Shown here in pieces: positions 46,092 through 64,000 of a stretch of DNA of 64,000 nucleotides. Location: contig DASWJQ010000195.1 of the NCBI GenBank assembly GCA_036397095.1, forward strand, positions 44,070-108,069, given 5' to 3'. The position numbers were made by a program, and so were the translations under genes. Numbering within the stretch: position 1 is the first letter of the stretch; the number at the start of each line of letters is the position of its first letter. This DNA comes from Anaerolineales bacterium. GTDB lineage: Bacteria; Chloroflexota; Anaerolineae; Anaerolineales; E44-bin32. The notes beneath the pieces are model-generated. The model searched no databases and was not told the DNA's origin. It worked only from the letters and a program-made list of their open reading frames with translations.

Positions 46092-46262
46092 CTAAGATTG
46101 CCCCGATTGCGCCGCCAGCGCTCCCTGGTAGGCCTTCCATCCAGGACACCAGCCCGTGTGCCATTTCCACAGCCGGGCCAACAAACCGGTCGGGTTCTTC
46201 TCGGCCCTGGCTCGCAATGGACACGTAGCGCACGGGAAATCGGACGGCTTGACGGCTGTCAT
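46092..46262 (-). CDS. Small Cys-containing protein (56 aa), below the ORF-track length cutoff
   Basis: My translation: MTAVKPSDFPCATCPLRARAEKNPTGLLARLWKWHTGWCPGWKAYQGALAAQSGQS. GAGGG 9 nt upstream of the ATG. Lies immediately downstream of tatA on the same strand. Confidence 0.5.
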   Translation of the reverse strand: MTAVKPSDFPCATCPLRARAEKNPTGLLARLWKWHTGWCPGWKAYQGALAAQSGQS

Positions 46263-46305
46263 GCTCTTGCCCTCATTCCTGGGTTATCAGCCGGGCGACC
46301 AGCCT

Positions 46306-46494
46306 TCAGGAAGCCTCTGGCGCCTCGCTGCTTTCTTCGGTCTCTTCCTTCGGATCGTCCTGCAGGCCACGGCGGAAGGCACGGATCCCCTGCCCCATCT
46401 CGCCGGCGACTTTTCCAATGCGGCCAACGCCGAACAGCAGAACCAAGATCAACAGCAGAATAATCAGTTCTGGCGGTCCCAACCTAAGCATCAC
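46306..46494 (-). CDS. tatA: Twin-arginine translocase subunit TatA/E
   Basis: 62 aa. LGPPELIILLLILVLLFGVGRIGKVAGEMGQGIRAFRRG is the canonical TatA TM + amphipathic helix. Confidence 0.85.
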   Translation of the reverse strand: MMLRLGPPELIILLLILVLLFGVGRIGKVAGEMGQGIRAFRRGLQDDPKEETEESSEAPEAS

Positions 46495-46559
46495 AACCTC
46501 CTGGACGGCACATCGCCGCCGCGCGAATGAGTCTCATTGATCGCTGGGTCCACCGGCAT

Positions 46560-47594
46560 TCAGGCTGGATCCCAGTTGAAGCCACTTGATACATGCACCT
46601 GCTGGTCTTTGCCCACCATCAGGGCATCTACACCTGGCAGCGTGTCAACCAGCGCCAGTCCCTGGGCCGGACCCAAGACCAGGAGCGACGTGCTCAAGGC
46701 GTCGGCGTCCATCGCGGTCGGCGCCAGCACGGTGGCACTGGCCAGCTCGGCCGGTGAAACGCCCTGACGCGGATCGATGATATGGTGATTGGCATAGTCT
46801 TGGCTGAAGGTGTTCATGTAGTCGCCGGAAGTGGCCATCGCCTTCTGGGCCAAGCGAGCGACCCCGACCCAAGGATGGTCGGCGCCGGCACGGGGGTCCC
46901 GAATCCCGATTTGCCAGTCCCCGTCCACCCGCCGGCCGCTCATCAGGTCGCCACCGACTTCCACCAAAATCTGGTCGAATCCCCAGCTTCGCAGGCTGTC
47001 TGCTCCCTGGTCGATGACGTAGCCCTTGGCAATGCCGTCCAGGGTCAGGGCCATCCCTGGCTTGGTCAGGCGCAGCGCGGCCCCCTCCACCTGGAGGTTG
47101 TGGTAGTCGACCAGCGAGGTCAAGCTCGCTCGCTCGCCGGCGGTCAGCGACTTGCCTGCTTCGGCTGCTTGACGATAGGCAGCCAACACCGGCTCAACGC
47201 TGATGTCAAAAGCGCCACCCGTCAACTGGCTGTGCAGGACCGCCCGCTCAACAACCGCGACCAGCGCCGCGTCGGCCTGGGCCAGATAACCCGTCCGGTT
47301 GAGTTGGGACAACTGGCTGCTTGGCAGGTAGCGGCTCAGCACCGATTCGAGGCGCTGCATGGCGTCGAAGGTGGCGGCCAACGCCCGTTCACCCAGATCG
47401 CGATCCTTGGTAAGCAAGGTCAAATTGGCGACCGACCCCATCAGCAACCGCGTTTCTTCGACACGCGCCGGGGACGAACCGTCCAGCAGGGCGCGTGCCG
47501 CCCAGGCGGTCGCGCCGATCCCGGCTGCCGCCGCCGTGATCCGGATAAAACCGCGCCGGCTGATTCGTTTGTCTGTCACCGTCGTGCTTCCCAC
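46560..47594 (-). CDS. apbE: FAD:protein FMN transferase (ApbE family), Tat-exported
   Basis: 344 aa. Tat signal SRRGFIRITAAAAGIGATAWA. ApbE motifs LDGIAKGY and MATSGDY...HHIIDPRQG. Confidence 0.85.
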   Translation of the reverse strand: MGSTTVTDKRISRRGFIRITAAAAGIGATAWAARALLDGSSPARVEETRLLMGSVANLTLLTKDRDLGERALAATFDAMQRLESVLSRYLPSSQLSQLNRTGYLAQADAALVAVVERAVLHSQLTGGAFDISVEPVLAAYRQAAEAGKSLTAGERASLTSLVDYHNLQVEGAALRLTKPGMALTLDGIAKGYVIDQGADSLRSWGFDQILVEVGGDLMSGRRVDGDWQIGIRDPRAGADHPWVGVARLAQKAMATSGDYMNTFSQDYANHHIIDPRQGVSPAELASATVLAPTAMDADALSTSLLVLGPAQGLALVDTLPGVDALMVGKDQQVHVSSGFNWDPA

Positions 47595-47635
47595 AGCTCT
47601 CTCCTTACCGTCCCGACCGTTGAGTCGGAGGATTG

Positions 47636-47944
47636 TTAGTTGTCCGACGTCGGCCCGCGATCCATCGCTTCCGTGGCAAAGGGGGTGACGGTAGATGTCG
47701 GCTCCTGATGGCCCTCATCATGCTGCGCCGGTGCAAAGGATGGGGTGAAATCCGGCGGCAATGTCGGCAGCGGGGCCGACTTGGTAGCGGTCGGCATCAC
47801 GATGCTGACCTGGTAAGGCTGCTGCGTACCAAGGGCACCTCGCTGTGGTTCCGAGCTCTCGGCCAGCGCCGACTGGATCGTCCCGCCTATCAACACCAAA
47901 CACACGGCAATGAAAACCAGCAGCAGTATCTCCTTTACCTTCAT
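47636..47944 (-). CDS. Small signal-anchored Pro-rich protein
   Basis: 102 aa. N-terminal anchor ILLLVFIAVCLVLIGG. ATGA overlap with the stop of the rdhC-like gene. Confidence 0.45.
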   Translation of the reverse strand: MKVKEILLLVFIAVCLVLIGGTIQSALAESSEPQRGALGTQQPYQVSIVMPTATKSAPLPTLPPDFTPSFAPAQHDEGHQEPTSTVTPFATEAMDRGPTSDN

Positions 47945-49155
47945 GAACGCACCTTCTTGATGGTGGTATCTACAATGCGCCGGCCCTCTCCGATGTAGTC
48001 AACAATGGGGTCGATTGGACACAGGTAGTTGCAGAATGGCCGAAGCACAACCAGCGACGTCAACATGATGATCGCCAACAAGATCCACTGGGCGGTCCCA
48101 CCGGTGAAATCGAACAGGGTGCCAAATGGTTCGTAGCTGGCGGGTCCCGGCTGGCGCAGGGCCAGGCCAAGCAAGATGGCGCTCAAGGCCAGACCGCGCT
48201 GCAGCCACTGCAGCCGGCTGTGCCACTGGCGCGGCCGGAACAGTTTGGCCCCGCCGATTTTGCCCAACCCTTCTTGAACGGCGCCAAAGGGGCAGAACCA
48301 GGAGCAGTACGGATTCTTGCCCTGGGCCGTCGTCACGAACAGGAGACCGCCCAGCAGCAAGAACCAGTACAAATTGGAATGCCAGTCGGGCCAATAGCCC
48401 GACAGCAGGGAGATGAAGTGGGCGACAGTCAGCGGCTTGTTGTACAGAAAGCCAATGCCAATCACACCGCCAACCAGAGTCAACCGGCGGATCCACTTCT
48501 TGGCCTGCGGTTGGCGTGACCGGTGACCGAAGTAGGCGACGATGTATAGCGCCAGCAGCAACGCCTCGGGCGCACCAAACTGAATCGGCTCGACCGCGGC
48601 CGGGACTCGGGCCCCGATCGGCCCGGCGGCCAGGGCTCGCGCCTGTTCACGCACGGCGCGGGCGACAGCTTCTGAGCTGATGGTGGCGCCGGTTACCGCA
48701 TCGATATCCTGACCGAGCCGCAGCTCATTCGTGTAGTCCATGCCCAGGAACTGGCGGAAGAAGTCGGCCTCGAGCAAGCGGCGGAAGAAGCCGGGTGTTT
48801 CGCGGTGCTCAATGATCTCAACCCCGATGATGGCGCCGTCGGCATTGACGCCGACCAGCACCTCGATGGGTCCGGCATAGCCGGTCGCCGTTCCGGTGCC
48901 GGCATAGCCGATCAGCTGACCGGAGGTAGGGTTGCCCTGCTCGGCATAGCCGAAAAAGACGTCCCCGCGCTGTTCGATATGCGTGGCACCGGGCAACACA
49001 TTCGAAACGCTGGGGGCGATGTCGCTGCCGGCCTGCAGGTAGCCGAAGAGCCAGGCGGTCAGCAGGGCCACGCCTGCCACGATTGTCACGATCGTCTGGG
49101 TGCGTTTGTCTTTACGCCGGGCCCGGGGCCGCGCCGCCTGGCTCGCTGCCAGCAT
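47941..49155 (-). CDS. RdhC/NosR/NapH-like membrane flavoprotein (periplasmic FMN-binding domain + polytopic domain with two CX3CP motifs)
   Basis: 404 aa from the internal ATG. FMN_bind region with flavinylation-type motif DAVTGATIS. Membrane part with CSWFCPFG and CNYLCPID. No C-terminal ferredoxin domain. Confidence 0.7.
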   Translation of the reverse strand: MLAASQAARPRARRKDKRTQTIVTIVAGVALLTAWLFGYLQAGSDIAPSVSNVLPGATHIEQRGDVFFGYAEQGNPTSGQLIGYAGTGTATGYAGPIEVLVGVNADGAIIGVEIIEHRETPGFFRRLLEADFFRQFLGMDYTNELRLGQDIDAVTGATISSEAVARAVREQARALAAGPIGARVPAAVEPIQFGAPEALLLALYIVAYFGHRSRQPQAKKWIRRLTLVGGVIGIGFLYNKPLTVAHFISLLSGYWPDWHSNLYWFLLLGGLLFVTTAQGKNPYCSWFCPFGAVQEGLGKIGGAKLFRPRQWHSRLQWLQRGLALSAILLGLALRQPGPASYEPFGTLFDFTGGTAQWILLAIIMLTSLVVLRPFCNYLCPIDPIVDYIGEGRRIVDTTIKKVRS

Positions 49156-49232
49156 GTCTTTCGTTACCGTCACACCCCTACCTCGTTCAACCGCCTCTGC
49201 CACGTGAATTCCGGCCTCCCAATCCGATTCGA

Positions 49233-49466
49233 TCAGCGCTTGACGCCGCAAGTAGCGCAGCCACCTGCTGCCGTCGGCACGCAAGTGCCGCAACCGCCGC
49301 CGGCCAACGCCCGGCCGCTGCCAAATGCAGTGAACGTCGACATGACACGCGAAGTCTGATGGCCGGTGCACTGCGGACACGTCGCCCGAGACTCACGGTC
49401 GGCCATCGAACGCTGCAGCTCAAAGGTCACCCTGCAGTCCGGGCAAAAGTACTCGTAAATCGGCAT
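49233..49466 (-). CDS. FmdB-family zinc-ribbon protein
   Basis: 77 aa. MPIYEYFCPDCRVTFE...CPQCTG, then a Gly/Cys-rich tail. Confidence 0.7.
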   Translation of the reverse strand: MPIYEYFCPDCRVTFELQRSMADRESRATCPQCTGHQTSRVMSTFTAFGSGRALAGGGCGTCVPTAAGGCATCGVKR

Positions 49467-49638
49467 TGGCTACCTCGCTTGCCACCAAGGGTGCCTAGGG
49501 TCGGCCCGCTCGTGGGCTACCGGCTAGTACACGGCCGGGCGCCCAGCGTCATCAAGATAATCGTCCCGCCAACGTTCCATTAGTGCCGAAAATCACCATT
49601 CGGCTGGTCAGCTTGCCTCTCCAGACAGGTAAGCACCG

Positions 49639-50982
49639 CTACAGATCGGGCGCCAATTCGCCGATAAGTTGGCGCGCTCGCTCAGCCATGTCCTGCTGCC
49701 CAACCCGCTTGTAAAGCTCGGCTGCCATCCCGGCCGCCTGCCGCGCCAGCTCATCCTCGCCCAAATCCCGGTAGGTCAGCGCCAGCAGCACCTGCTGCTC
49801 AGCAACGATCTCGGGCTCATGCTCGGCTTCGAGTTTTTCGACGGCTAGCTCCCCGTAGCGGCGAGCCGCTTCCATTTGGCCTTGCTCGGCATACAGTGCA
49901 CCCAGTCGGCCCAGCGCCACCGTCATGCTGCGCGGGTTGTTTTGTTCCCGCGCCTCTTCGAGGGCTTCTTGGTAGGCCGCCTCACACTCGTCGAAGCGGC
50001 CGAGGTCGAAGTACAGTCGTCCCAACTGCATCATCAGCACCAGCTTCTTCATCCGGGGCCCGCGGCGCCGGACGTAGTCGAGTGACTCATGGAGCAGGAT
50101 GAGTGCTTCGTCATGGCGCCCCAGGTTGAGCAGCGCGGTAATCGCGTTCTCCCGCTGGATGGCGGCTTCGACGTGATCGCCGCGGCGCTCTGCCAGGCGC
50201 CGGGCCATTTGGCAGTGTTCGAGGTAATCCTCCAGCCGGCCGAGGCCGAGATCCACCTCGAGCAGTTCGCGCAGCACGTCCCACTGGCGCATTTCATCGC
50301 CGGCCGCCTGTGCCTGCGAGAACGCCGACTGCAGGTTGGCAGCCCCCGCTTCGTATTGACCCTGCCTCAACTGTGACTGAGCCAGACCCAACCGCAAGCG
50401 GACGATTTCCGCCGGTTCTGCCTCGGCGCCCCGTCCGTCAAGCGCCTGGACGAAGGCGGCCTGCGCCTTTTCATCCTGCCCGCCGGCCAGGAACAGCTCG
50501 CCCTTGTGCGCCAGCAGCCGGGCTTGGCCGGCACCGTCGGTCCGCTCGACCCCGGCCAGCAGTTCGTCGAGGGCAGTCTCGGCCTCGGGCAAGCGACCTA
50601 GCTCGCCGAGCGCCTTCGCCCGCACTAACTGAACGTCTTCCACCAATGCCGGCATGTTCTGCCTGGCGTTCTCAAGCGCCCGGTCGTAGCAAGTGAGGCC
50701 ATCCTGGCGCCGTTCGATGCGCGTCAACAGAGTCCCTTTTTGCATCAAATGTTTGACCGCCGCAGCGTGGTCGCCGGCCTGCTCGGCCTCGGCTACGGAC
50801 CGGTCCAGGGCAGCGATGGCGTTCTCCAGGCGGGCTTGCTCTTCTTCCAGCGCAGCTAGGTCGGCAAGGGCCGCCTGGCGCTCATACGGGTTGTTCTGGC
50901 GTTCGGCCGCCGCCAGCCGCTCGTGGGCGGCCTGTACGCGCATGCCTTGCTGCACCAGATCATTCAAAAGTTCAGCGTCCAT
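49639..50982 (-). CDS. Tetratricopeptide-repeat protein
   Basis: 447 aa. Repeated 34-aa helical A/L/E-rich units throughout. Confidence 0.65.
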   Translation of the reverse strand: MDAELLNDLVQQGMRVQAAHERLAAAERQNNPYERQAALADLAALEEEQARLENAIAALDRSVAEAEQAGDHAAAVKHLMQKGTLLTRIERRQDGLTCYDRALENARQNMPALVEDVQLVRAKALGELGRLPEAETALDELLAGVERTDGAGQARLLAHKGELFLAGGQDEKAQAAFVQALDGRGAEAEPAEIVRLRLGLAQSQLRQGQYEAGAANLQSAFSQAQAAGDEMRQWDVLRELLEVDLGLGRLEDYLEHCQMARRLAERRGDHVEAAIQRENAITALLNLGRHDEALILLHESLDYVRRRGPRMKKLVLMMQLGRLYFDLGRFDECEAAYQEALEEAREQNNPRSMTVALGRLGALYAEQGQMEAARRYGELAVEKLEAEHEPEIVAEQQVLLALTYRDLGEDELARQAAGMAAELYKRVGQQDMAERARQLIGELAPDL

Positions 50983-51021
50983 CGACTCTCTCCCGATACT
51001 TCAACGCCCAACCGCCACCGG

Positions 51022-51681
51022 TCAGACCTCGATCTCCTCGTTACCCAACATGCCGGCCTTGTAAGCCAATTCAACCAACTCGGCCCGATGCTCCAGATCG
51101 AGTTTCTGCATCAGGCGCGAACGGTACGTGTCCACCGTCTTGCCGCTGATGGCCAGCATGTTGCCAATTTCACGGCTGCTGTAGCCGCGGGCGGTCCAGC
51201 GCATGACCTCGCGCTCGCGGTCCGATAGCGTGCTCAAGAGCACCTGCGCGTTGCCGGCCGTGCGGATCGACCGCACCAGGACCGTCGTCGCCGATGGGTG
51301 CAAGTAGGCTTTGCCGCTGTTGACGGTGCGAATTGCCCGCAGTAAATCGGTGTGCGCCGACGACTTGGGCACATAGCCATCGGCGCCGGACTCGAGCGCC
51401 TTGGTCACGATCTCGTTGCCCTTGTGCATCGACAGCACAATCACACCAATGTCAGGGTGGTCCTGCCGGATGCAGCGGATGGCATCGAATGCCGTCATAC
51501 CAGGCATGCCCAAATCCATCACGACAATGTCGGGGGATGCCGCCGGCACGAGCTGCAGCGCTTCGTCGGCCGTCTCTGCCTGTCCCACAACCTGGATGTC
51601 GTCCTGCTCCTCAAGCAAGGCGCATAGGCCGGCGCGCAATACGGCATGGTCGTCGACCAGCAGCACTTTGATGGACGTCAT
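51022..51681 (-). CDS. NarL/FixJ-type response regulator (REC + LuxR HTH)
   Basis: 219 aa. VLLVDDH...DIVVMDLGMPGM receiver. C-terminal LSDREREVMRWTARGYSSREIGNMLAISGKTVDTYRSRLMQKL. Confidence 0.9.
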   Translation of the reverse strand: MTSIKVLLVDDHAVLRAGLCALLEEQDDIQVVGQAETADEALQLVPAASPDIVVMDLGMPGMTAFDAIRCIRQDHPDIGVIVLSMHKGNEIVTKALESGADGYVPKSSAHTDLLRAIRTVNSGKAYLHPSATTVLVRSIRTAGNAQVLLSTLSDREREVMRWTARGYSSREIGNMLAISGKTVDTYRSRLMQKLDLEHRAELVELAYKAGMLGNEEIEV

Positions 51682-53408
51682 GCCGTCACCTCCATGCGCG
51701 GGATGCGCACTGTCAAATGCGTCCCCTGGCCCGGCCCCGTCCGAACTACGAAGCTGCCGCCCAGCCGTTCGGCTCGCTCCTGGATGCTGGCCAGGCCGAT
51801 GTGGGCGACGCCTTCCACAACCAGATGATCGGGGTCAAAGCCGGTCCCGTCATCTTCAATCTCCAGCAGCAGTTCGTCGTCCAGCAATTGGACCGACAGG
51901 CTGGTTTGTTGGGCGCACGCGTGGCGGGCGATATTGGTCAGGGCCTCTTGCGCAATGCGGTAGAGCGTGATTTCCAGGGTTGGATCGAGCCGCTCACCGT
52001 CCAGGTTTGAGTCAAATACGACCAGCATTCCATTCTGGCCGAGCATGTCGGTTAGCAAGTTGCGCAGAGTGGGTCCCAAACCCAACTGCTCCAGATCTGG
52101 AGGCCGGAGTAAGTGTGACAGGCTGCGGATGTGCTCGATGGCATCCGAAAGTTCGACACACAGATCCGAGATGCCGGCCTGAAGGACGCTGATGTCGTCC
52201 TTGGCCGAAAGCGACGTCAGGCGCAACAGCACACTGGTCAATTCCTGACCGGCGCCGTCGTGCAGCTCGCTTGAGATTACGGCGCGCTCATCCTCTTGGG
52301 CCGTGACCAGCGAGTGCAGCAAGGCCTCCATGCCGGCCTCCTTGTCGCGCAGGTCGGCATGCAGCCGGGCGTTGGCCACCGCCTCCGAGACCTGAACCCC
52401 CAGGGCGCCGATCAGTTCAATTTCCTCGTCGCGCGCCGGGGCCTCCTTGGACCACAACAGGTTGAGGACCCCAAGATCGCGGCCCCGGGCCCGCAGCGGG
52501 ATAGACAGGTGTGGTGGATGATCGCCCCCTGGTTGAGCTGCGGCCAGTGCCAGCCGTTTGCATTCCCGCTGCACGGGCTCGTTCCATTCACCCTCTTCTA
52601 GCAGGGCACGCTGACAACCACAGAAAGCGTCCGGCGACGACCACGGTTCGGCCTCGACGACGCCCGGCGGCGCCACGGCACAGGCCAAGTAGAAGCGGCC
52701 GCTCTCGGGATCGGTCAGGTAGATCCAACCGCTCTCCAGGCCGGTGACATCCAGCGTGCTGTTGAGGGCGGCCTCCAGCACAATGGCCAGATCGAGCCCA
52801 CGGCCAACTGAATCTGACACATGACAGACAGCGCCCAATCGCCGGTTGCTGCGTTCCAATTCACGCTGGCTGTTGACCAGTTCATCGACCATCCGGTTGA
52901 AAGCCTCGGCCACCTGCCCGATTTCATCGCCGGAATAGACCGGGGCGCGTTCATCCAGGTCCCCCCCCCGAACCAGGTCGGCCACCCGCTTGAGTTCGAG
53001 AATGGGGGTGGTCAACAAGAGCATCAACGCCGAGGTGAGAAAGAGCGAAAGGCCAGCCGCCAGGACCGTGACCACAAGCACCGATCGGCCACCGGCTTGC
53101 ATGGCCATGGCAACGCGTTCCGAATCGAGCAACCACGAGAGCCAATCGCTGAGCGAACCGCGCACCCAGAAGTTGACGGCAATTCCGAAAATGAGCACGG
53201 GCAGCAGGACCATGCCGCCGATCTTGACCCTAACCGGCACGCCCAACGCCCATGACTGGATGCCCCGCGGCGCTCGGCGGATCCGAGCAATCCACCAGGC
53301 GCGTACATGCCGTTGTGGAAGCAATCGCACGGATTTTCCTTTCGGGGAATTCCCTACAGACGGCATGCTTTCAGTATCTTTGGGCGCACCCGCGACGATT
53401 AGTGACAT
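51678..53408 (-). CDS. Sensor histidine kinase (TM-HAMP-GAF-HisKA_3-HATPase)
   Basis: 576 aa ORF. H-box SSELHDGAGQELT, N/G boxes near the C-terminus. Overlaps the RR start by 4 nt. N-terminal start uncertain. Confidence 0.8.
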   Translation of the reverse strand: MSLIVAGAPKDTESMPSVGNSPKGKSVRLLPQRHVRAWWIARIRRAPRGIQSWALGVPVRVKIGGMVLLPVLIFGIAVNFWVRGSLSDWLSWLLDSERVAMAMQAGGRSVLVVTVLAAGLSLFLTSALMLLLTTPILELKRVADLVRGGDLDERAPVYSGDEIGQVAEAFNRMVDELVNSQRELERSNRRLGAVCHVSDSVGRGLDLAIVLEAALNSTLDVTGLESGWIYLTDPESGRFYLACAVAPPGVVEAEPWSSPDAFCGCQRALLEEGEWNEPVQRECKRLALAAAQPGGDHPPHLSIPLRARGRDLGVLNLLWSKEAPARDEEIELIGALGVQVSEAVANARLHADLRDKEAGMEALLHSLVTAQEDERAVISSELHDGAGQELTSVLLRLTSLSAKDDISVLQAGISDLCVELSDAIEHIRSLSHLLRPPDLEQLGLGPTLRNLLTDMLGQNGMLVVFDSNLDGERLDPTLEITLYRIAQEALTNIARHACAQQTSLSVQLLDDELLLEIEDDGTGFDPDHLVVEGVAHIGLASIQERAERLGGSFVVRTGPGQGTHLTVRIPRMEVTA

Positions 53409-53510: not shown

Positions 53511-53735
53511 TCAGGCGCTCAGGATTCGGCGGCGGACGAAGTAGACAATCGCACCGCCCAGCAGCAGGATGATCCCCACCACCCACAGGATGCTGGCGAC
53601 GCGGGGCTCAAGTTCGGCACTGCTGGCCATGGCGTTTTGCAGGGTGAAGACCACCGCAAACGCCCAGGCGATCCAGGCCAGCCACTCGTACCACGGGCGG
53701 CGAGCGACTTCGAGTTTGTAGGTTTTGTCAGTCAT
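53511..53735 (-). CDS. rdhB: Putative RdhB-type membrane anchor (pair 1)
   Basis: 74 aa from ATG 53735, 2 nt after the rdhA-1 stop, with GGAGG inside the rdhA 3' end. Two TM helices with an acidic loop AELE. Confidence 0.5.
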   Translation of the reverse strand: MTDKTYKLEVARRPWYEWLAWIAWAFAVVFTLQNAMASSAELEPRVASILWVVGIILLLGGAIVYFVRRRILSA

Positions 53736-55135: not shown

Positions 55136-55653
55136 GGAAATCCTCCTTGCCGCCGGCGGCCGGAGCCCTGCTCCCGCGCCGGTCGGTCAGATTTAGTTAC
55201 ATGCTAGAAGTTATGCGGATAGGCGACTATCAGGAAGAGTCCTCCAAGTTGTAGGGGGTTTCCCCACAGCTTGCCCAGCAACCGGCCAGCGTCTAGGCCG
55301 TAATCCTTGTGCTTGACCCCTCGCAGTGCCCCGGAGGGAGCGCTCGACGGTTCGTGACACGACTCCGCAGGTCGGCCCACCAACGAAGTTGGTCTGACGG
55401 GCAAATCAGGGCCGATCGCGCGCAAATCTATTGGGCGGCTCTTAGCGGCGCTTTTCCCCTACAAGTTGTCTAGATTCTCCCGACGAAGGTGAAAGGCTAG
55501 TTTGACTACACTGATGCCAGCCATTGTGAGAAATGGCGCAAGATGGGCTTGATTGACCCTTTTCAGTGAAGGAGGAGACGGCGTACAACGCAGCAGCCTG
55601 GGCCCTTCGCCAAGGGCCCCATCCAGATGGTTCCGCCGCCACATCAAGTCATC

Positions 55654-57211: not shown

Positions 57212-57478
57212 ATGACCGCAGGTTTGATCGCCGGCATCGGCCTGACCCTGGCCTTCGTCGGTTTCTACGCATGGGCCCAGGACAAGGGCTGGACCATCAA
57301 GTGGTGGCAGTGGACACTGCTCATCCTGGCGTCCGGCCTATTGTTGCTGGGCGTCGGCGCACTGGGCACCTCGCTAGCCGAGGGCACGGCCGCCGCCGGC
57401 TGGCTGCTGTTCGGCATGGCGGCCCTCGTGGCCGTGGTCATGGGCTTCGCCGCCCTGCGTCCAGTGCGAGCAAGCTAA
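57212..57478 (+). CDS. rdhB: Putative RdhB-type membrane anchor (pair 2)
   Basis: 88 aa, starts 1 nt after the rdhA-2 stop. Three TM helices. The loop motif SLAEGT is shared with pair 3 (LLAEGA). Confidence 0.6.
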   Translation: MTAGLIAGIGLTLAFVGFYAWAQDKGWTIKWWQWTLLILASGLLLLGVGALGTSLAEGTAAAGWLLFGMAALVAVVMGFAALRPVRAS

Positions 57479-57515
57479 CCGACCAACCGCAAGACGACCC
57501 TCCATCTGGAACCAG

Positions 57516-57550: not shown

Positions 57551-57629
57551 CGGCCCTGCCAGCGCGTGCCATTTGTCACTCGGAAGCGGAGGGCCCGTCA
57601 GCTAGACTGCCCACCAGAGGTATCAATCA

Positions 57630-59252
57630 ATGGCCAAATGGATCCTGAACAGCAGCCGTGCCCAGAAGGCGCTTAGCCGGGGAACATCGATCCTGCGCAG
57701 CGCCGTTGCCCCGACCTTGGGGCCGATCGGCCGTACAGTCCTGATGGACCGCCGTTGGGCCGGCACCAGCGTGGTCAGCGATGGCTTCACGATCAACCGC
57801 GAGCTGGAGCTGTGGGATCCGTTCGCCGATATGGCCATCCGCTTCCTGGAAGACGCCTCCGAGAAAGTACGATCGGCCTGCGGCGATGGCACCACCACAA
57901 CCGTCTTGCTGGCCGAGGCGCTTATTCGGGCCTGCCAGCCGCTGCTCGCCAGTGGCGCCGACCCGATGGCCCTGAGCCGTGCGCTGGCCCGCGGCGCTGC
58001 CTTGGCCGTTGACGAACTACGGGACATGTCTTGCCCTGTGGCGGACGCCGGCCAATTGGCGGCGGTGGCCAGCCTGGCGGCCAAGGATGCAGAGCTAGGA
58101 AGGGTTGTCGGAGAATTGGTGTGGGACCTCGGGGCCGATGGCGCATTTCTGGCGCTCGAATCCCAGGGGCGAACGGTCGAGCATGAAGTCATCGAAGGGT
58201 TCCGTTTTGACCGCGGCGCCATCAGTCCGGCCTTCCTCACCGATCCGGTCAAGGTCGAAGCCGTCTTGGAGAACCCTTACCTGCTGTTGACCGCTGAAAA
58301 GCTCGAGCGGGTTGACGATATCCTGCCGGCCTTGGAGCGCATTCTGCCCGAGGCCCATACGCTGGTGGTGGTCGCCCAAGATGTGACCGGCGAGGCATTG
58401 GCCGGCCTGGCGATGAACAAGGAGCGCGGCAACTTGGAGGTGCTGGCGGTCAAAGCGCCTGGGCTGGGTGGCCGCATGGAAGAGCAACTTGAGGAGTTGG
58501 CAGCGGCGACCGGCGCGACCGTGCTGCCGAATTATGAAACGGGTCGTACGTTGGCCGGCATCACGATCGAGGATTTGGGCCGCGCCGACCGGGTTGTTGC
58601 CAACCGACAAATGACGACGGTGTTTGGCGGGAGGGCCGACCCCAAGCGCGTCGCTGAGCGAATGGCCATTCTGCGAAATGGTGCCGCCGAGGCGCAGACC
58701 GACAAGTACCGGCGTGAATTAACCGAGCGCATTGGCGCCATCCTCGGCAAGACCGCCGTCCTTAAAGTAGGTGGTCTCAGCCAGTTGGAAGTCAAAGAGA
58801 AGGTGGTTCGCGTTCGCAACGCGGTGGCGGCGGCCCAAGCGGCTCTGCGGGGCGGACTGCTGCCCGGCGGCGGCGCCGCCCTTGCGCGGGTTGGGCTGGC
58901 CGTTGGCTCGGCCCCGGCCGCCGATGACCTGACCCGCATTGGCTTTCGGGCCGTCCAGCGGGCGCTCGAGGCGCCCCTGCTCAGCCTGGCGCGCAATGCA
59001 GGTGAGCACGGCCCGCTGGTGCTGGCGGCCGTGCGGCAGGCGCCGGCCGGCAGCACCTATGATGCGTTGACCGGCCAGGTTGGCCCTGCCTCAGAATCAG
59101 GGATCCTCGATCCAATGGAAATGGTGGTTGCTGCCCTGCAGCGGTCCGTGAGCGTGGCGGCAGCCCTGCTGACGGTGGACACGGTCATTGTCTCTCCACC
59201 GGAGCCTGGTGTGGCCGACGAACGACCGGACGTCAGCGCACGTTACGAGTAG
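57630..59252 (+). CDS. Divergent GroEL/Cpn60 paralogue, no GroES partner
   Basis: 540 aa. LGPIGRTV, CGDGTTTTVLLA, LLPGGGAAL. No GGM tail. The residue aligned to E. coli D398 is Asn (codon 58818-58820). No groES and no CIRCE-like operator upstream. Confidence 0.85.
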   Translation: MAKWILNSSRAQKALSRGTSILRSAVAPTLGPIGRTVLMDRRWAGTSVVSDGFTINRELELWDPFADMAIRFLEDASEKVRSACGDGTTTTVLLAEALIRACQPLLASGADPMALSRALARGAALAVDELRDMSCPVADAGQLAAVASLAAKDAELGRVVGELVWDLGADGAFLALESQGRTVEHEVIEGFRFDRGAISPAFLTDPVKVEAVLENPYLLLTAEKLERVDDILPALERILPEAHTLVVVAQDVTGEALAGLAMNKERGNLEVLAVKAPGLGGRMEEQLEELAAATGATVLPNYETGRTLAGITIEDLGRADRVVANRQMTTVFGGRADPKRVAERMAILRNGAAEAQTDKYRRELTERIGAILGKTAVLKVGGLSQLEVKEKVVRVRNAVAAAQAALRGGLLPGGGAALARVGLAVGSAPAADDLTRIGFRAVQRALEAPLLSLARNAGEHGPLVLAAVRQAPAGSTYDALTGQVGPASESGILDPMEMVVAALQRSVSVAAALLTVDTVIVSPPEPGVADERPDVSARYE

Positions 59253-59294
59253 GTGATCTGACCACAGACGGCAGACGGCGGACGGCAAGATCGG

Positions 59295-59374
59295 TAACAC
59301 GAAGTCACAAAGAAACGGAAAGACAAAGACACGAAGGAGATCATAGGCAATTGAGTCTTCGTGTCTTTGTGTTA
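59295..59374 (+). repeat. CACRAAG-heptad hairpin element, copy 7 (short form)
   Basis: TAACACGAAGTCACAAAGAAACGGAAAGACAAAGACACGAAGG ... GTCTTCGTGTCTTTGTGTTA. Lies between convergent genes. Confidence 0.7.
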
Positions 59375-59404
59375 TCTGCTCTTGCTGGAAGCTGAGGGCT
59401 GTAC

Positions 59405-59593
59405 CTAGTCGCTCAAGACGGCCAGCAGCACCAGACCGCTCTCTGCTTCCATCGCTTTGAGCACTTGCAGGTCCTCATCGCTCAGTTCAGCGACCACTGC
59501 CACCGGTTCGTAGGCGACCACCGTGGCGCCCACCTGGGATTCGAGTTCTTGCAGCTTGCTTAGCTGATTGGGGTTCAACGAGGCGAACTTCAT
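59405..59593 (-). CDS. Small acidic hypothetical protein (62 aa)
   Basis: AAGGAG SD 8 nt upstream of the ATG. Lies downstream of rdhA-3 on the same strand. No family recognised. Confidence 0.5.
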   Translation of the reverse strand: MKFASLNPNQLSKLQELESQVGATVVAYEPVAVVAELSDEDLQVLKAMEAESGLVLLAVLSD

Positions 59594-59649
59594 TGGGGAT
59601 CTCCTTCTCCCGGAACCAATGACTTCATCCTACCATCCGCCAGAAGCGA

Positions 59650-59686
59650 ACTTCCGGGAAGTCCGTAGTTCGGACTTCCCGGAAGT
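59650..59686. repeat. Perfect 16-bp hairpin = two 13-nt palindromes ACTTCCsGGAAGT (59650-59662, 59674-59686)
   Basis: ACTTCCGGGAAGTCCG-tagtt-CGGACTTCCCGGAAGT, 27 nt downstream of the rdhA-3 stop. Confidence 0.8.
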
Positions 59687-59712
59687 AGCTTCTTCTTCAG
59701 AACTCGGCAGGA

Positions 59713-61131
59713 TCAGGCGTTCTTGATGTGGATGAAGTTGTCCTTCTTCCAGTATTCGCGCGAGTCCTCTTCGGTCGCATACTGACTGGCATCATCCAGC
59801 GCCAAGATGGCTTGATCCGCTGCGCCGCTGCGCATGCCAATAAGTGATCGAGTGGCGTCGTGCAGCCAACCTTCAGGCTTATTGAAAGGGCAAACTCGAA
59901 TGCAGTTGTGGCAGCTCATGCCGCTGGTAGACCAGACCATGTGGCAGGCCACGACGTCTACCGGCCACTTGTACACGCCCGGGTTGTTGGAGATATTGCG
60001 GGCATCATAGGTTCGCTGATTTTGACCTTTGATGATCCCACCCGCCGGGCAGGTATCGGCGCATTTGCCGCAAATCTCGCAGAACTCTGTGGCGCCGAAC
60101 GAGATCGGGCTGTCCGGCGTCAAGGGCATATCCGTAATGACCTTGCCCAATCGGACGCGAGGGCCGTACTTAGGCGTGATCAACATGCCGTTGCGGCCAA
60201 GTTCACCCAACCCCGCATCCACGGCAATCGGAATGCTCAATCCAGTACAGTTGCCGCTTGGGATGGCATGATAGCCCATGCCTCGGATGAATTCCGCCAG
60301 GCTGGCAGCAGTGAAGGCCGTCTTGGAGTAGCCATTGCCCGTGGCCGCGTTGGCTGGACCACCGATCGGATACTGGTATCCGTCGTAGTCCATCTCAAAC
60401 GCCATCGAGATGACGTACTTCATCGAGCGCGGGATGACCAGGGTCTTGTCCGCACGCTCCTCAGGGACATCGACATCCTCGAACAGGATCGGGGCCACGA
60501 TATTCGGCGGATCACTGTAGCCCTTTGTATCGCGATGGGAGTAAATCCACCGTTCATCAAGTTCGGCAATGCCGGCCATCGAGGCGCCATAGAACAGCGC
60601 CGCCTTCTTGACGATATCGGTCACTTCGCGCGGTGTGTAGCCGGCCATATCCCACGGGCCCATTTCGGTCAAGCGGGCACGCGACAGAAAAGACCCGGGC
60701 AAAGGCTGCCAGGAGTACAGACCACCATTGGATCCGCCGACCGCACCTGCACCGTTTCCTTGAACAGTAGCCACCGTCCAGGAAGCTGTGTAGAAGGCGT
60801 AATCCATCCGATTGAAGCCGGGATCATTGGCCATGATGTGATCGAGGGGGACCTTGGCATAGGGTGCCTCGGCATCGACGATCTCTTTATCCCATACGGC
60901 CCGGCTGAATACCTCGTTGTGTTGGTTAAACCTCCGGTAGATCGAATCGTCGACTTGGTAGGGCGGATCGGCTGCAGCGTGACGCCTGATCAGGAAACCA
61001 CCGAAGGCCTCCGACGTCACTAGCTCATCGGACCCGATCCGACCGATCACTGTAACAGCCGGCAGTGTCATGCCAGCCAAACCGAGCGATTTGACGAAAT
61101 CGCGGCGAGTTAGATCCTTCGTGGTAGACAT
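59713..61131 (-). CDS. rdhA: Reductive dehalogenase homologue RdhA-3
   Basis: 472 aa. GGGAGG SD. Tat signal TRRDFVKSLGLAGMTL. CEICGKCADTCP and CHNCIRVCPF motifs. Confidence 0.85.
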   Translation of the reverse strand: MSTTKDLTRRDFVKSLGLAGMTLPAVTVIGRIGSDELVTSEAFGGFLIRRHAAADPPYQVDDSIYRRFNQHNEVFSRAVWDKEIVDAEAPYAKVPLDHIMANDPGFNRMDYAFYTASWTVATVQGNGAGAVGGSNGGLYSWQPLPGSFLSRARLTEMGPWDMAGYTPREVTDIVKKAALFYGASMAGIAELDERWIYSHRDTKGYSDPPNIVAPILFEDVDVPEERADKTLVIPRSMKYVISMAFEMDYDGYQYPIGGPANAATGNGYSKTAFTAASLAEFIRGMGYHAIPSGNCTGLSIPIAVDAGLGELGRNGMLITPKYGPRVRLGKVITDMPLTPDSPISFGATEFCEICGKCADTCPAGGIIKGQNQRTYDARNISNNPGVYKWPVDVVACHMVWSTSGMSCHNCIRVCPFNKPEGWLHDATRSLIGMRSGAADQAILALDDASQYATEEDSREYWKKDNFIHIKNA

Positions 61132-61142
61132 TTAATACCTCC

Positions 61143-61430
61143 CTACGCCGCAGCCGTGACTGGCTTGGCGAAAACATAGCGGCCGAGCAGCACGCCCCAG
61201 ATGACGGCGATCAGGCCGAGCAGGATGCCCGACACGAGCGCCGCCTGGGGCGCACCTTCGGCCAGCAGGGTTGCGACGACTTCGATCACGAACACGCCGA
61301 ACAGCAGGCCGAGCACAGTCAGGACCCAGGCCCAGACCGGGACGACCAGCCGGCGGCGCCGCGCCAGGTCGAACAGCCCGAGCAGGGCTGCCGTCGCCAG
61401 CGCTCCGATGAGCAAATGCACGAGTAACAC
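61143..61430 (-). CDS. rdhB: Putative RdhB-type membrane anchor (pair 3, upstream of rdhA-3)
   Basis: 95 aa. GTG start with GGAGG 7 nt upstream. Three TM helices. Loop LLAEGA. Confidence 0.6.
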   Translation of the reverse strand: MLLVHLLIGALATAALLGLFDLARRRRLVVPVWAWVLTVLGLLFGVFVIEVVATLLAEGAPQAALVSGILLGLIAVIWGVLLGRYVFAKPVTAAA

Positions 61431-61688
61431 GGTGGCCTCCTTCGAAAGCCGATAGCTTGCATCCGGTATTAGTTCCGGATTTCACAAGTGCCCCTATTGT
61501 CCCATGTTCTGGCCGAAATTCTTGTCCGCAACTGGCGTACAAAAACCATGACATTCATCACCAACCGAGAATCAAGCCGGGCGGCAGTATGGCCGCCCAG
61601 TTTGTGCTGGAGTATTCAACCGGTCGTCTTCTGGGGTGCAATTGCCTGACAGCCTGCGTGGAGGATCGTGCATGCGCAGACAAACCGG

Positions 61689-61729
61689 CCTTCCCGGAAG
61701 TCCAGCTTCGGGACTTCCGGGAAGTCCGA
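61689..61729. repeat. Second copy of the ACTTCCsGGAAGT palindrome pair (14-bp hairpin CTTCCCGGAAGTCC-agcttcg-GGACTTCCGGGAAG)
   Basis: 61714-61729 is identical to 59650-59665 (ACTTCCGGGAAGTCCG). Lies between the cobU stop and the rdhB-3 promoter region. Confidence 0.8.
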
Positions 61730-61769
61730 TCTTCGGTGTCGGTAGCCTGGGATCTAGCTCGGCGATGGG

Positions 61770-62330
61770 CTAGGCAGACCGCTCGCCCTTCAACCACATG
61801 GGCAAGCCAGCCACCAGCAGCACCACTTCGTCGGCGGCCGCCGCCAGCCGCTGGTTTGCCCGACCCAGGGCGTCGCGGTAGGCCCGGCCCAGGGGATAGG
61901 CCGGCACCAAACCCTGGCCGACTTCGTTTGACACGACCAGCCAATCGGCGTCCGACTCGCCGGCCAACGCCACCAGGTCCGCGATTTCTTGCAGCAATTC
62001 GGATTCAGCCCGCTGGTGCGCGGCCGGATCATCGACGTCGCCGGCGGCAAACAGGTTGTTGGCTAGCAACGTCAGACAGTCGAGTAACAGGGTGTCGTAG
62101 ACGCCATCGGCGGCGGCGATCGCCGCTGCCAGCGCGGTCGGCGCCTCCAGGGTCCGCCAGGCCGCCGGCCGCTTGGCTTGGTGGGCGGCAATGCGAGCCG
62201 CCATCTCGTCGTCAAGCGCCTGGGCGGTGGCCACGTACAGCACGCTGGCTGCGCCGGCGGCACGCGCCTCGGCGTAACTGCTCTTGCCGCTGCGGGCCCC
62301 TCCCAGGATCAGCGTCAGCCGGCCGGCCAT
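61770..62330 (-). CDS. cobU: Adenosylcobinamide kinase / adenosylcobinamide-phosphate guanylyltransferase
   Basis: 186 aa. P-loop [15 protein letters not shown]. Confidence 0.85.
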
Positions 62331-63076
62331 GGCACCCCCGCCGCCTGCAGCGCCCCGACCGAGCTCTCAAAGTCGGCCTGGCCAAAAACCTCCAGCGTGA
62401 GAACACCTTGGTAGTCATGATCCAGCAGCGGCCGCAGCACCCGGGCAAGCTCCTTCGAATCGGCGTGGCTCAGCGATTGGTGGTCGCGGCTGCCCAGCCC
62501 GTGCAAGTGGATAACCCGCGCCCGCGCCAGGTGGCGCTCGAGGAATGGAACCGGGTCGTGCCCATCGACCCACAGATGGCCAATGTCCAGGCAGCGGCTA
62601 ACCGGCACCCGTTCAAGCACCGGGTCAATGAAATCCAGCGGGTATCCTTCCAGATTCTCGACGGCCAGCAATTCGGGGGCCCCCGCCCAGGCGGCGGTCA
62701 GCTCCAGCGAGCAGGCGGCCTGGTCGATCCAAGCTTCGTAATCCGTCATGTGCTTGCCTTCAAGATGCAGCACATAAGCCCATGGTGCCAGCGCTTTGGT
62801 GCGCTCGATCACCCGTTGGGCCTTCTCCAACGAGGCGTGACCGGTCGAGCCATCGTCCCCCATGCGCAGGTCGAGCGGCAAGTGAACCGTGTAGCTTAGG
62901 TCGTGCTCTGACGCCAACGCCGCCAGTTCGCCAACCACGGCTGTCGACGGCAGGTTGTTCTGACCGTCGTCAACTTCGAACAGGACCAACTCAACGTCGT
63001 CGACACGCGGCGCCAGGTACTGCACGTTGGGCAGGATGTCGGCCGGCAAGATGTAGGATGTGGTTCCCAGGCGCAC
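62315..63076 (-). CDS. Xylose-isomerase-like TIM-barrel (AP endonuclease 2 family) protein, candidate CbiR-type cobamide remodelling enzyme
   Basis: 253 aa from GTG 63076 (GGGGAGG upstream, after the cobS stop). The longer ORF-track start overlaps cobS. Family call from general pattern and its position between cobS and cobU. Confidence 0.45.
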
Positions 63077-63081
63077 CGGGG

Positions 63082-63804
63082 TCAGCCTCCCCAGCGCAGG
63101 GAAAAGCCCACCAGCACAGCAACCTCCACCAGCTCGATCGAGGCGCCCAACACATCCCCCGTTTGACCCCCGAGCCGGGCCATCGCCAGCCGGCCAAGGA
63201 GCCAAGTGGTCGACAGCCCCAGCACGAGCGCGACCACTCCCTGCCACCCCAGCCAGGCACAGGCAGCCAGCAACGGCAGCCCCCACAGCAGGCTAGGCCA
63301 GCCGAGTTCGGCGTGCAGCCGACCACCAAGACCCCCGTCCCTGGCTGGTTTGGCCCGGGCCAACAGCAGCACGGTCCAGCGGGCAATCGTCGGCGCCAGC
63401 AGCAGCCCGGTGCTGGCCGCCAAGGAGCCGATCGCCAGGGTTTTGACCAGCAGGACCAGGATCAAACTGGCGACACCAAAAGCGCCAACATGCACATCCG
63501 ACAGGATTTCAAGCCGGCGGGCGGGCGTGGCCGAGGCCAACAGCCCATCCCCGCAATCGGCCACCCCGTCCAGGTGCAAGCCGCCGGTCAGCCCGACCCA
63601 CAGCGCAAGGGTCAGCCCCGCCGTCAGCGCGGCCGGCACAACTATTCCCAACAGCCCGTGCGCCGCCCATAGACACAGGCCGAGGGCCAGCCCGACCGCC
63701 GGATACCAGATCGCCGCCCGGCCCAGTTGGCCCGGCTCGAGTTCGCCCTTGGGCCGGACCGGCAGGATCGTCAGGAAGCCAAGCGCCCAGCGCAGCCCGG
63801 TCAC
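63082..63804 (-). CDS. cobS: Adenosylcobinamide-GDP ribazoletransferase (cobalamin synthase)
   Basis: 240 aa polytopic. [17 protein letters not shown]-terminus and the [10 protein letters not shown] motif. Confidence 0.85.
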
Positions 63805-64000
63805 GCCTTGTCGCTCACCCCGGCCGATTCGAAGGTGGCCATCTCGCGCAGCACGCGGGCGGCCGCTTCGATGGTGTGCATTGCCAGCGCAGCGCCGGTC
63901 CCCTCGCCCAGACGCAGATCGAGCTTGAACAACGGCACCAGACCCAGGTTCTCAAGGATGACTCGATGGCCGATTTCAACCGACTGATGCGAAGCGATCA
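63801..64000 (-). CDS. cobT: Nicotinate-nucleotide--dimethylbenzimidazole phosphoribosyltransferase, C-terminal fragment (runs off window)
   Basis: My translation of the minus strand ends ...[47 protein letters not shown] overlap with the cobS start. Confidence 0.8.

Follow-up and report, generated by a model that had tools for sequence, protein, structure and literature searches.

Among the described systems closest to the one reported here is pceABCT of Desulfitobacterium hafniense and Dehalobacter restrictus, which encodes a menaquinol:organohalide oxidoreductase (PDB 8Q4H). We describe a reductive dehalogenase (rdh) locus with three RdhA homologues, RdhA1 to RdhA3, in a 64,000-nt stretch of DNA (hereafter the window) from an uncultured bacterium of the Anaerolineales, phylum Chloroflexota (assembly GCA_036397095.1, contig DASWJQ010000195.1, positions 44,070 to 108,069). 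We read it as a respiratory-type locus built in three layers, namely a core operon around rdhA1, a trio of rdhA2, rdhB2 and a groEL gene, and an rdhB3-rdhA3 cassette; we put the probability of this whole explanation, the three layers together with the working proposed below, at about 0.62.

The locus shares with PceABCT an RdhA that is exported by the twin-arginine translocation (Tat) pathway, carries a cobamide and two [4Fe-4S] clusters, and has a catalytic Tyr and Arg; a small RdhB; an RdhC with a flavin mononucleotide (FMN)-threonine motif, two CX3CP motifs and six helices; ApbE (Ftp) for flavinylation; and a dedicated folding helper. It differs in that the host belongs to another phylum; that the folding helper there is the trigger factor PceT, whereas here there are a tetratricopeptide repeat (TPR) protein and a GroEL paralogue and no PceT homologue; that a constitutive transposon promoter is used there and a two-component system is encoded here; that RdhB1 has only two transmembrane segments, and the EXE motif is reduced to one Glu in RdhB2 and RdhB3; and that identity to D. 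hafniense PceA is only ~20-24% in structural alignments.

The cprTKZEBACD cluster of Desulfitobacterium dehalogenans, said to have been described by Smidt and co-workers in 2000, reportedly has the same B-A order as our rdhB3A3 pair, with CprC as its RdhC, and is said to contain the GroEL-type chaperone genes cprD and cprE, which we liken by gene type to the GroEL paralogue here. It differs in its regulator, which is CprK (CRP/FNR type) there and a kinase with a LuxR-type regulator here, and in that the GroEL gene here goes with the A-B ordered RdhA2 and not with the B-A pair; cprC and cprD are mentioned in PMC5928378. Dehalococcoides and Dehalogenimonas, which belong to the same phylum as our host, share with this locus rdhAB pairs with adjacent two-component or MarR regulators, several divergent paralogues per genome, and a dependence on cobamide salvage and remodelling. 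They are obligate organohalide respirers of low-to-mid GC whose rdhAB genes lie in high-plasticity islands; they respire with a complex that works without quinones, and remodel cobamides via CbiZ. In contrast to those genera, the locus here has an RdhC/ApbE module and CbiR, its core operon is conserved, and its host is a generalist. By analogy, then, the system would work like the Firmicutes PceAB(C) and Cpr systems and unlike the quinone-independent complex of Dehalococcoides.

Parts of the locus also resemble systems outside organohalide respiration. RdhC shares with NosR of the NosR-ApbE system (N2O respiration) and with NapH an extracytoplasmic FMN_bind domain, ApbE flavinylation and CX3CP motifs, and the NCBIfam NosR and NapH models match it partially; it is shorter than NosR (410 aa vs about 700) and tied to RdhA instead of NosZ. 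CbiR of Akkermansia muciniphila has a counterpart here with a strong equivalog match (288 bits), lying between cobS and cobU and near cobT and btuFCD; this one differs in that it lies directly upstream of an rdhBA pair of the same orientation, in a member of the Chloroflexota, and its activity is predicted.

A preliminary description, made from the letters of the window, had listed three RdhA homologues with Tat signals and double Fe-S motifs, and these are borne out by the open reading frame (ORF) listing and translation. The gene orders it gave (A-B, A-B and B-A) and the divergence of pairs 1 and 2 hold, with a spacer of 518 bp (55136-55653); beside each RdhA there is indeed a small partner with two or three transmembrane segments, all three matching PF27193 (VcrB/RdhB); and every accessory gene that it named was found (RdhC, ApbE, TatA, the two-component system, the TPR protein, the GroEL paralogue and the cobamide genes). 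It was also right in calling the three RdhAs clearly divergent, pairwise identity being 25-34%; they may, as it suggested, act on distinct substrates. Three genes that it had passed over, for a zinc-ribbon protein, a 102-aa protein and a 62-aa ORF, appear in the lists below. The RdhA1 side of the locus reads as follows.

46306-46494, minus strand: TatA (PF02416, 42 bits; cut-off 21).
46560-47594, minus strand: ApbE flavin transferase (PF02424, 223.8 bits), with the Tat motif SRRGFIR.
47636-47944, minus strand: 102-aa protein with one N-terminal transmembrane segment (one hydrophobic segment) and a Pro/Thr-rich tail.
47941-49173, minus strand: RdhC, a PceC/NosR-like membrane flavoprotein (FMN_bind, 68.7 bits; Fer4_5, 52.8 bits).
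49233-49466, minus strand: FmdB-type zinc-ribbon protein, 77 aa (PF09723, 49.4 bits).
49639-50982, minus strand: soluble TPR protein, 447 aa (TPR_12, 77 bits; no transmembrane segment).
51022-51681, minus strand: NarL/LuxR-type response regulator (Response_reg, 92 bits; GerE, 66.5 bits).
51678-53408, minus strand: membrane histidine kinase with two transmembrane segments (HAMP-GAF-HisKA_3-HATPase domains).
53511-53735, minus strand: RdhB1, 74 aa, two transmembrane segments, ELE (EXE) motif (PF27193).
53738-55135, minus strand: RdhA1 (TIGR02486, 288.5 bits).
55225-55268, minus strand: conserved element upstream of rdhA1, 44 nt (position weight matrix, 16.8 bits).

The evidence for a conserved core comes from the relatives of RdhA1, which form a very large and tight clade. 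There are 845 homologues at E<=1e-10, the best 120 of the 845 being 64-100% identical to RdhA1, and those with a name belong to Anaerolineales, Caldilineaceae, Ardenticatenaceae and groups like these. A further scan, limited to a single genome for each GTDB species, gave 185 relatives; the best 80 of these 185 (50-81% identity) are almost all from metagenome-assembled genomes (MAGs) of Anaerolineae, and the few exceptions, on short contigs, are probably mis-binned. We tallied gene order at these best 80 loci by tblastn of the window proteins, taking as each denominator the loci with enough flank. The canonical same-strand order is kinase, regulator, RdhA, RdhB, RdhC and ApbE, with or without a following TPR gene: kinase and regulator lie upstream of the RdhA1 orthologue at 58/63 loci, the regulator immediately so, while RdhB lies downstream at 64/73, RdhC at 56/67, ApbE (after RdhC) at 47/62 and TPR at 24/48. 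A GroEL gene was near the RdhA1 orthologue at 0/48 loci of other species. In the window lineage and at L088 (comparison loci bear L numbers) the kinase and regulator lie downstream of rdhAB, unlike their canonical upstream place. A neighbour-joining tree groups the RdhA1 orthologues roughly by submitter taxonomy.

The preliminary description had framed the whole 18-kb region as an organohalide-respiration island; so read, it would be a mobile segment recently acquired. For the cluster as a whole this framing is not supported. Because the RdhA1 module keeps its gene order in at least 80 Anaerolineae species, its tree follows taxonomy, GC is flat (0.60-0.68 both inside and outside the region, without anomaly) and no tRNA was found in the window, we read it as a class-conserved operon and not as a recent island. 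There is no tRNA or integrase gene at either cluster boundary, and the IS110-family gene lies on one side only. The element upstream of rdhA1 is conserved too, and lipA, which lies near the operon in the window, is likewise within ~5 kb of it at L058. The cluster is an ordinary representative of an established type, and its core is an operon common to many Anaerolineae rather than a fresh acquisition.

The full operon, from kinase through regulator, rdhA, rdhB, rdhC and apbE to TPR, also occurs at L013 (JADJXK010000001.1, Ca. Leptofilum proximum) and in other MAGs of activated-sludge filaments; the core operon is found in abundant filaments of both activated sludge and soil. Of the MAGs in a survey of wastewater Chloroflexota, only those of Dehalococcoidia were screened for rdh genes (PMC10746286).

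The conservation extends into the DNA upstream. By k-mer counting in the 400 nt upstream of RdhA1 orthologues we found an inverted repeat consisting of TGTCAGGAAAA, ~21 nt, and TTTTCCCGATACCG, with a TAnAnT box ~18 nt further on. The right half is present at 39/73 loci and both halves, in a fixed 32-nt register, at 28; loci with the element span L008-L066. The window version, TGTgGGGAAAc-N21-cTTCCTGATAg, lies at 55225-55268 on the minus strand, 90-133 nt upstream of the rdhA1 ATG, and is the one window match to a position weight matrix built from 28 other species (16.8 bits vs a shuffle maximum of 1.3). We take it as a candidate operator for the co-encoded regulator of LuxR type; it would overlap the -35 region. 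On the rdhA2 side of the spacer, the sequence at 55456-55488 (plus strand) resembles the right part of the rdhA1 element (CCCCTACAAG...TTCTCCCGAC) and is conserved vs L088; it is not significant by the matrix (2.2 bits vs a shuffle mean maximum of 4.5) and we give it as a lead. Scans of the divergent spacer for sigma-70 promoters and terminators found nothing.

The second layer lies on the other side of this spacer, transcribed in the opposite direction.

55654-57210, plus strand: RdhA2 (TIGR02486, 146.4 bits, below cut-off).
57212-57478, plus strand: RdhB2, 88 aa, three transmembrane segments, a single conserved Glu (PF27193).
57630-59252, plus strand: divergent GroEL paralogue (Cpn60, 192.9 bits).

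RdhA2 is rare. A word-indexed search returned 20 homologues, and an exhaustive HMMER search of 1.84 billion representatives returned 35 at E<=1e-30, ~15 of them full-length with the distinctive N-terminal 200 residues; a search of genome contigs with RdhA2 alone found no relative. Judged from these sequences, RdhA2 belongs to what appears to be a rare clade that branches deep within the RdhA family. Its close subclade (58-74% identity) forms the trio with RdhB2 and GroEL in every flanked context (L088, L096, L097 and the window, 4/4). The distant members L087, L089 and L090 are without GroEL and have RdhB and RdhC, two of them adding a TPR protein, a small ORF, ApbE and TatA. The trio is absent beside RdhA1 in 48/48 other species and in the closest relative L007 (RdhA1 81% identity), which has DtxR-FeoAB and BtuFCD upstream instead of RdhA2-GroEL. 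A dtxR-type iron repressor gene with feoAB lies directly beside rdh clusters at three unrelated Anaerolineae loci (L007:6736-9663, L090:2357-5502 and L091:409-3554); this adjacency may reflect the iron demand of Fe-S enzymes. The label of paralogue for the GroEL protein is sustained, because it scores 427.8 bits against TIGR02348, where the equivalog cut-off is 582.1, and passes only the broad subfamily model NF009487; because it has no C-terminal GGM tail; and because no groES-sized gene was called on either side.

The third layer is the B-A pair with its two hairpins, beside which lies a small ORF.

59405-59593, minus strand: 62-aa acidic ORF (no family match; called as a gene in the assemblies L001-L003).
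59650-59686, minus strand: hairpin on the 3' side of the rdhA3 stop codon, 27 nt away (stem of 16 bp; -40.3 kcal/mol; z -8.5).
59713-61131, minus strand: RdhA3 (TIGR02486, 246.8 bits).
61143-61430, minus strand: RdhB3, 95 aa, three transmembrane segments, upstream of RdhA3 (PF27193).
61686-61728, minus strand: hairpin 42 nt 3' of the cobU stop codon (-38.1 kcal/mol, z -5.5).

Homologues of RdhA3 are 50-73% identical and mostly from Chloroflexota, and members of its clade, seen at L090-L093, always have the B-A order. At L096 the GroEL gene abuts cobU-cbiR-cobS-cobT, where the window has orf62-rdhA3-rdhB3 between. The pair is bracketed in the window by two near-identical hairpins with 16-bp stems, one shortly after the rdhA3 stop codon and the other shortly after that of cobU. 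The palindrome ACTTCCSGGAAGT has four copies only in the window, as two pairs, one pair per hairpin; we considered these pairs as operator sites and rejected them, since each lies directly 3' of a stop codon and folds to -38 or -40 kcal/mol. The hairpins are better read as shared terminators or repetitive extragenic palindromic (REP)-like elements that mark a cassette-like indel. No such hairpin pre-exists as an insertion site at the GroEL/cobU junction of L096.

In these two sub-modules the island framing keeps some ground. Compared with related genomes, as the preliminary description had proposed for the island boundary, the core is shared by at least 80 species, and the RdhA2-RdhB2-GroEL and rdhB3A3 parts are found neither in L007 and L008, the nearest relatives, nor at any of 48 other-species loci; they are variable add-ons, and only they have the character of a genomic island. 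Recent mobility of the entire region could further be argued from the absence of the hairpin-bracketed cassette at L096, from the kinase and regulator genes being rearranged relative to the canonical order, and from an IS3-type integrase gene (37346-38245) and the IS110 transposase gene at the left edge. We consider it distinctly unlikely, given the class-wide synteny, taxonomic tree, even GC and plain boundaries of the core described above. The combination of three RdhA clades recurs, because the MAG CFX15 carries members of all three (L014 and L090).

The insertion sequence cited at the left edge does exist, and falls just outside the range of 46092-64000 to which the preliminary description had assigned it; it is at the same place in the assemblies L001-L003.

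44548-45702, plus strand: IS110-family transposase, left neighbour of the cluster (PF02371 Transposase_20, 54.6 bits; DEDD_Tnp_IS110, weak).

Together with the IS3-type rve integrase gene at 37346-38245 (minus strand) it flanks a lipA-citrate synthase segment left of the cluster. The two insertion-sequence genes may relate to the local kinase/regulator rearrangement.

The deposited contig has a defect of its own. Window bases 1-25858 form a perfect palindrome, the arms 1-12929 and 12930-25858 being 100% complementary without a spacer, and the NCBI accessions for RdhA2, RdhA3 and GroEL are mirrored pairs (HEX9798420/422/424 and HEX9798513/515/517) on one contig of 113,996 nt; because of both, we conclude that the contig is a fold-back assembly artefact of 2 x 56,998 nt, with every gene annotated twice in the MAG. 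One might go on to suspect that the cluster itself, annotated twice in mirror order on a contig with such a palindrome, is an assembly chimera. This is extremely improbable: the palindrome centre (12929|12930) is 33 kb away from the cluster, and among 23 RdhA1-bearing contigs examined an identical RdhA1 was found in six independent assemblies (ENA, JGI, Logan), with the same genes in the same order and once each, 3/6 spanning the whole cluster. The cluster is therefore not an assembly artefact.

The family membership of the three enzymes rests on profiles and on residues. RdhA1 and RdhA3 score above the cut-off (160.35 bits) of the curated hidden Markov model TIGR02486, the NCBIfam model for reductive dehalogenases, and match the Pfam Dehalogenase family (PF13486) with 137 and 43.7 bits; NCBI labels RdhA2 a 'reductive dehalogenase domain-containing protein'. 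The Tat motifs read SRRDFLR in RdhA1, SRRDFIK in RdhA2 and TRRDFVK in RdhA3; Tat models (TIGR01409 or PF10518) are above cut-off for the first two, and the third was recognised by eye alone. The eight Cys of the two [4Fe-4S] motifs are invariant in alignments of all three. The equivalents of Tyr246 and Arg305 (numbering of S. multivorans PceA), in PceA the proton-transfer Tyr and the stabilising Arg (PMC10624902), are invariant in 17/17 aligned sequences, comprising the three RdhAs, the RdhA2 clade and the S. multivorans PceA core. An equivalent of Asn272 is present in RdhA1 and RdhA3. The RdhA2 clade has Trp or Gln after the first Fe-S motif and an insert of ~13 residues ahead of the second. 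To our knowledge RdhAs carry no simple corrinoid-binding sequence motif, binding being base-off.

The preliminary description had raised the doubt that the RdhAs might cluster with non-respiratory families. Compared with characterised enzymes, taken as PDB chains, all three give higher scores with respiratory PceAs than with NpRdhA: 184.6 vs 111.6 bits for RdhA1, 71.8 vs 56.7 for RdhA2 and 220.7 vs 90.9 for RdhA3, the last against 4uqu and with ~43% identity to the S. multivorans PceA core. The AlphaFold model of RdhA1 (predicted local distance difference test, pLDDT, 79; predicted template modelling score, pTM, 0.81) matches PceA 4ur3_A with template modelling (TM) scores of 0.71/0.72 and E 1.9e-26, followed by D. 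hafniense PceA (8Q4H) and NpRdhA, with QueG far behind. The RdhA2 model is of low confidence (pLDDT 61); its top matches are PceA and NpRdhA (E about 1e-13, TM score 0.37-0.44), and its significant PDB matches are only PceA, NpRdhA and QueG proteins also met by the RdhA1 model. On these comparisons the doubt is not borne out. The respiratory-type architecture, a Tat signal plus an RdhB anchor, is present as well. Membership of the RdhBs was taken from precomputed PF27193 matches and their transmembrane counts from a hydrophobicity scan; the EXE motif reads ELE in RdhB1 and AEG in both RdhB2 and RdhB3, the first Glu being invariant in all three.

A cobamide/Fe-S scaffold of this kind could also serve, as in QueG, to reduce a substrate that is not halogenated, and this might be so for at least one RdhA, above all RdhA1 with its class-wide spread or the divergent RdhA2. 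Across orders RdhA1 shows unusual conservation (50-81%), and it has a dedicated sensor, a pattern that fits a common natural substrate; RdhA2 has its own N-terminal 200 residues, no Asn272 and a score below the reductive dehalogenase cut-off. We regard this as improbable, since the catalytic Tyr/Arg pair of PceA is invariant and the QueG matches are far weaker. We also know of no RdhA of the Tat/RdhB type that does not dehalogenate.

Around the enzymes lie genes for electron transfer and maturation. RdhC has a DAVTGAT flavinylation motif, two CX3CP motifs (CSWFCP and CNYLCP) and six hydrophobic helices by Kyte-Doolittle analysis, the FMN domain lying between the first and the second. The published hallmarks of PceC/RdhC are six transmembrane helices, an extracytoplasmic FMN domain with a flavinylated Thr, and two CX3CP motifs (PMC5928378, which also lists Chloroflexi RdhC sequences). 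RdhC agrees with this definition, its topology and flavinylation being predicted. The Tat motif of ApbE implies extracytoplasmic targeting, and TatA follows ApbE at L087 and L090 too. The 102-aa protein has no family match in the libraries scanned, and a small ORF takes its slot at L087, L088, L090, L092 and L097. The zinc-ribbon gene is beside RdhA genes also at L055, L062, L063, L074, L081-L086 and L088. The TPR protein is homologous to a 443-aa protein in the same slot of L087 (27% identity, E 2e-14), and a TPR protein lies beside RdhC at L090 as well; it is possibly a factor for RdhA maturation or assembly.

The cassette adjoins a cobamide operon that runs on past the window.

61770-62330, minus strand: CobU, cobinamide kinase/guanylyltransferase (PF02283, 189 bits).
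62315-63076, minus strand: CbiR, cobamide-remodelling phosphodiesterase (NF041277, 288.1 bits; cut-off 105).
63082-63804, minus strand: CobS, cobalamin 5'-phosphate synthase (PF02654, 163.7 bits).
63801-64000, minus strand: 3' end of cobT (from the gene tables of L001 and L094).

The preliminary description had named a cobamide salvage cluster but missed that the xylose-isomerase-like gene between cobU and cobS encodes CbiR, which passes the equivalog NF041277. An Rfam scan of the whole window gave nothing. To the right of the window, L094 has btuF-btuC-btuD, a gene for a CobQ/CbiA-type amidotransferase and cobT (L094:4579-10004, about 0-6.5 kb beyond the window) and a cobalamin riboswitch (RF00174, 63.9 bits; L094:4317-4470, ~6 kb beyond its end). 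The operon of riboswitch, btuFCD, cobQ/cbiA-like gene, cobT, cobS, cbiR and cobU has the same direction as rdhB3A3, with the cassette at its 3' end. This is an operon for uptake, salvage and remodelling of cobamides rather than for de novo synthesis.

From family knowledge, PMC10624902 and PMC5928378, the likeliest mechanism by analogy is quinol-dependent, membrane-anchored and cobamide-dependent dehalogenation of the PceAB(C) type. Layer 1 would be ancestral, with rdhA1-rdhB1, the HAMP-GAF kinase, the LuxR-type regulator, the TPR protein, RdhC, the small membrane ORF, ApbE and TatA, the kinase and regulator having presumably moved in this lineage from upstream to downstream of rdhAB. Layer 2 would be the lineage-specific trio, transcribed divergently from rdhA1, and layer 3 the hairpin-bracketed cassette, placed at the 3' end of a cobamide operon under probable riboswitch control. 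Each RdhA would be loaded in the cytoplasm with a cobamide and two [4Fe-4S] clusters, its folding helped by the GroEL paralogue and possibly the TPR protein; once folded it would be exported by Tat and dock on its own RdhB at the outer face of the membrane. Menaquinol would supply electrons to the distal Fe-S cluster where RdhA and RdhB meet, an arrangement known from the PceA2B2 complex, and these would pass through both [4Fe-4S] clusters to the cobamide, with RdhC, covalently flavinylated by the Tat-exported ApbE, supporting or feeding the electron step. The cobamide would reduce the carbon-halogen bond, the conserved Tyr donating a proton and the conserved Arg stabilising that Tyr. The kinase would sense a signal, and the regulator would activate rdhA1 via the inverted-repeat element at 55225-55268.

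Several points weigh against this reading of the locus. The function of all three RdhA clades is predicted from sequence. RdhA2 fails TIGR02486, matching model positions 88-308 only, and has no Pfam Dehalogenase match at E <= 0.01; its clade has replaced Asn272; its first Fe-S motif reads CxxCxxCxxxCW, with Trp for Pro of the usual ...CP; and its model, at pLDDT 61, is too weak for residue-level reading, so that a multiple alignment was used instead. RdhB2 and RdhB3 retain one Glu of the EXE motif, which has been linked to proton handling (PMC10624902). The role of RdhC in electron transfer is disputed, PceC being ~50-fold scarcer than PceA and missing from many organohalide respirers (PMC10624902). 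Menaquinone synthesis and electron-donating enzymes are not visible within the window, and the element upstream of rdhA1 is paired with this particular response regulator by co-occurrence alone.

The enzymes could be real dehalogenases that conserve no energy and serve detoxification, co-metabolism or the scavenging of halide or carbon in a facultative heterotroph. The host is a generalist, to judge from its genes for citrate synthase, LipA and F420-dependent enzymes; lineages known from aerated activated sludge (Ca. Leptofilum, Promineifilaceae) have RdhA1 orthologues; and the incomplete EXE motif of RdhB2 and RdhB3 would agree with such a role. Yet Tat, RdhB and RdhC/ApbE together make up the respiratory layout (PMC10624902, PMC5928378), the catabolic RdhAs known so far are fusion proteins of the cytoplasm that have neither a Tat signal nor an RdhB, and the scores against PceAs exceed those against NpRdhA throughout. 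We therefore hold this use of the enzymes to be unlikely, if by no means negligible, and prefer the respiratory-type locus in three layers.

Some other genes of the window are context unrelated to the locus. They are an F420-dependent LLM oxidoreductase (25931-26932, minus strand; TIGR03617, 424 bits), a LonB-like protein of 828 aa (27805-30291, minus strand) and a PA14-domain protein of 805 aa (33351-35768, plus strand). Four ORFs of 185-341 aa have coding-like GC at third codon positions (36391-37089, minus; 39818-40843, minus; 40950-41954, plus; 43658-44215, minus); none has an NCBIfam match and the last three are also clearly Pfam-negative.

The preliminary description had thought it notable that a complete toolkit should sit in a high-GC genome with citrate synthase, lipoyl synthase and F420-type enzymes. 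The gene content is as it said; the notability falls away, since rdhA in Anaerolineae has been published and NCBI names these proteins reductive dehalogenases. Occurrence of rdhA in Anaerolineales/Anaerolineae was reported in 2016 (PMC4959059) and 2025 (PMC12660952), and Anaerolineae have been proposed as facultative organohalide respirers. In PMC12660952, 95% of marine reductive dehalogenases were without both Tat and RdhB, a difference from the three RdhAs here, which have both. In the literature searched we found no description of the conserved operon from kinase, regulator, rdhA, rdhB, rdhC and apbE to TPR, or of its operator. What the present analysis adds to that literature is modest: the class-wide operon, its operator and the RdhA2-GroEL trio.

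A wider proposal is more tentative, and we would bet against all of its parts holding jointly. It is that the core operon with its 44-nt operator may be an old, largely vertical respiratory module of the Anaerolineae for a common natural organohalide or other acceptor; that the Anaerolineae may be a large guild of facultative organohalide respirers, dependent on quinone and RdhC, that has been overlooked; and that the GroEL-linked RdhA2 clade, with its altered active-site Asn and novel N-terminal domain, may be a functionally distinct new subfamily.

By itself the cluster changes little, being already annotated by NCBI in a class with published rdhA. What could give it meaning is that a core with RdhB, RdhC, ApbE, a sensor and a candidate operator is conserved in the Anaerolineae, which are among the most abundant bacteria of soils, sediments and wastewater plants. 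It offers a defined, testable system for the contribution of RdhC and ApbE to electron transfer and for the natural substrates of dehalogenases outside the Dehalococcoidia. The RdhA2-RdhB2-GroEL trio would be a naturally occurring example of a chaperonin dedicated to a hard-to-express class of enzymes, and the CbiR operon ties cobamide remodelling to dehalogenases outside Dehalococcoides.

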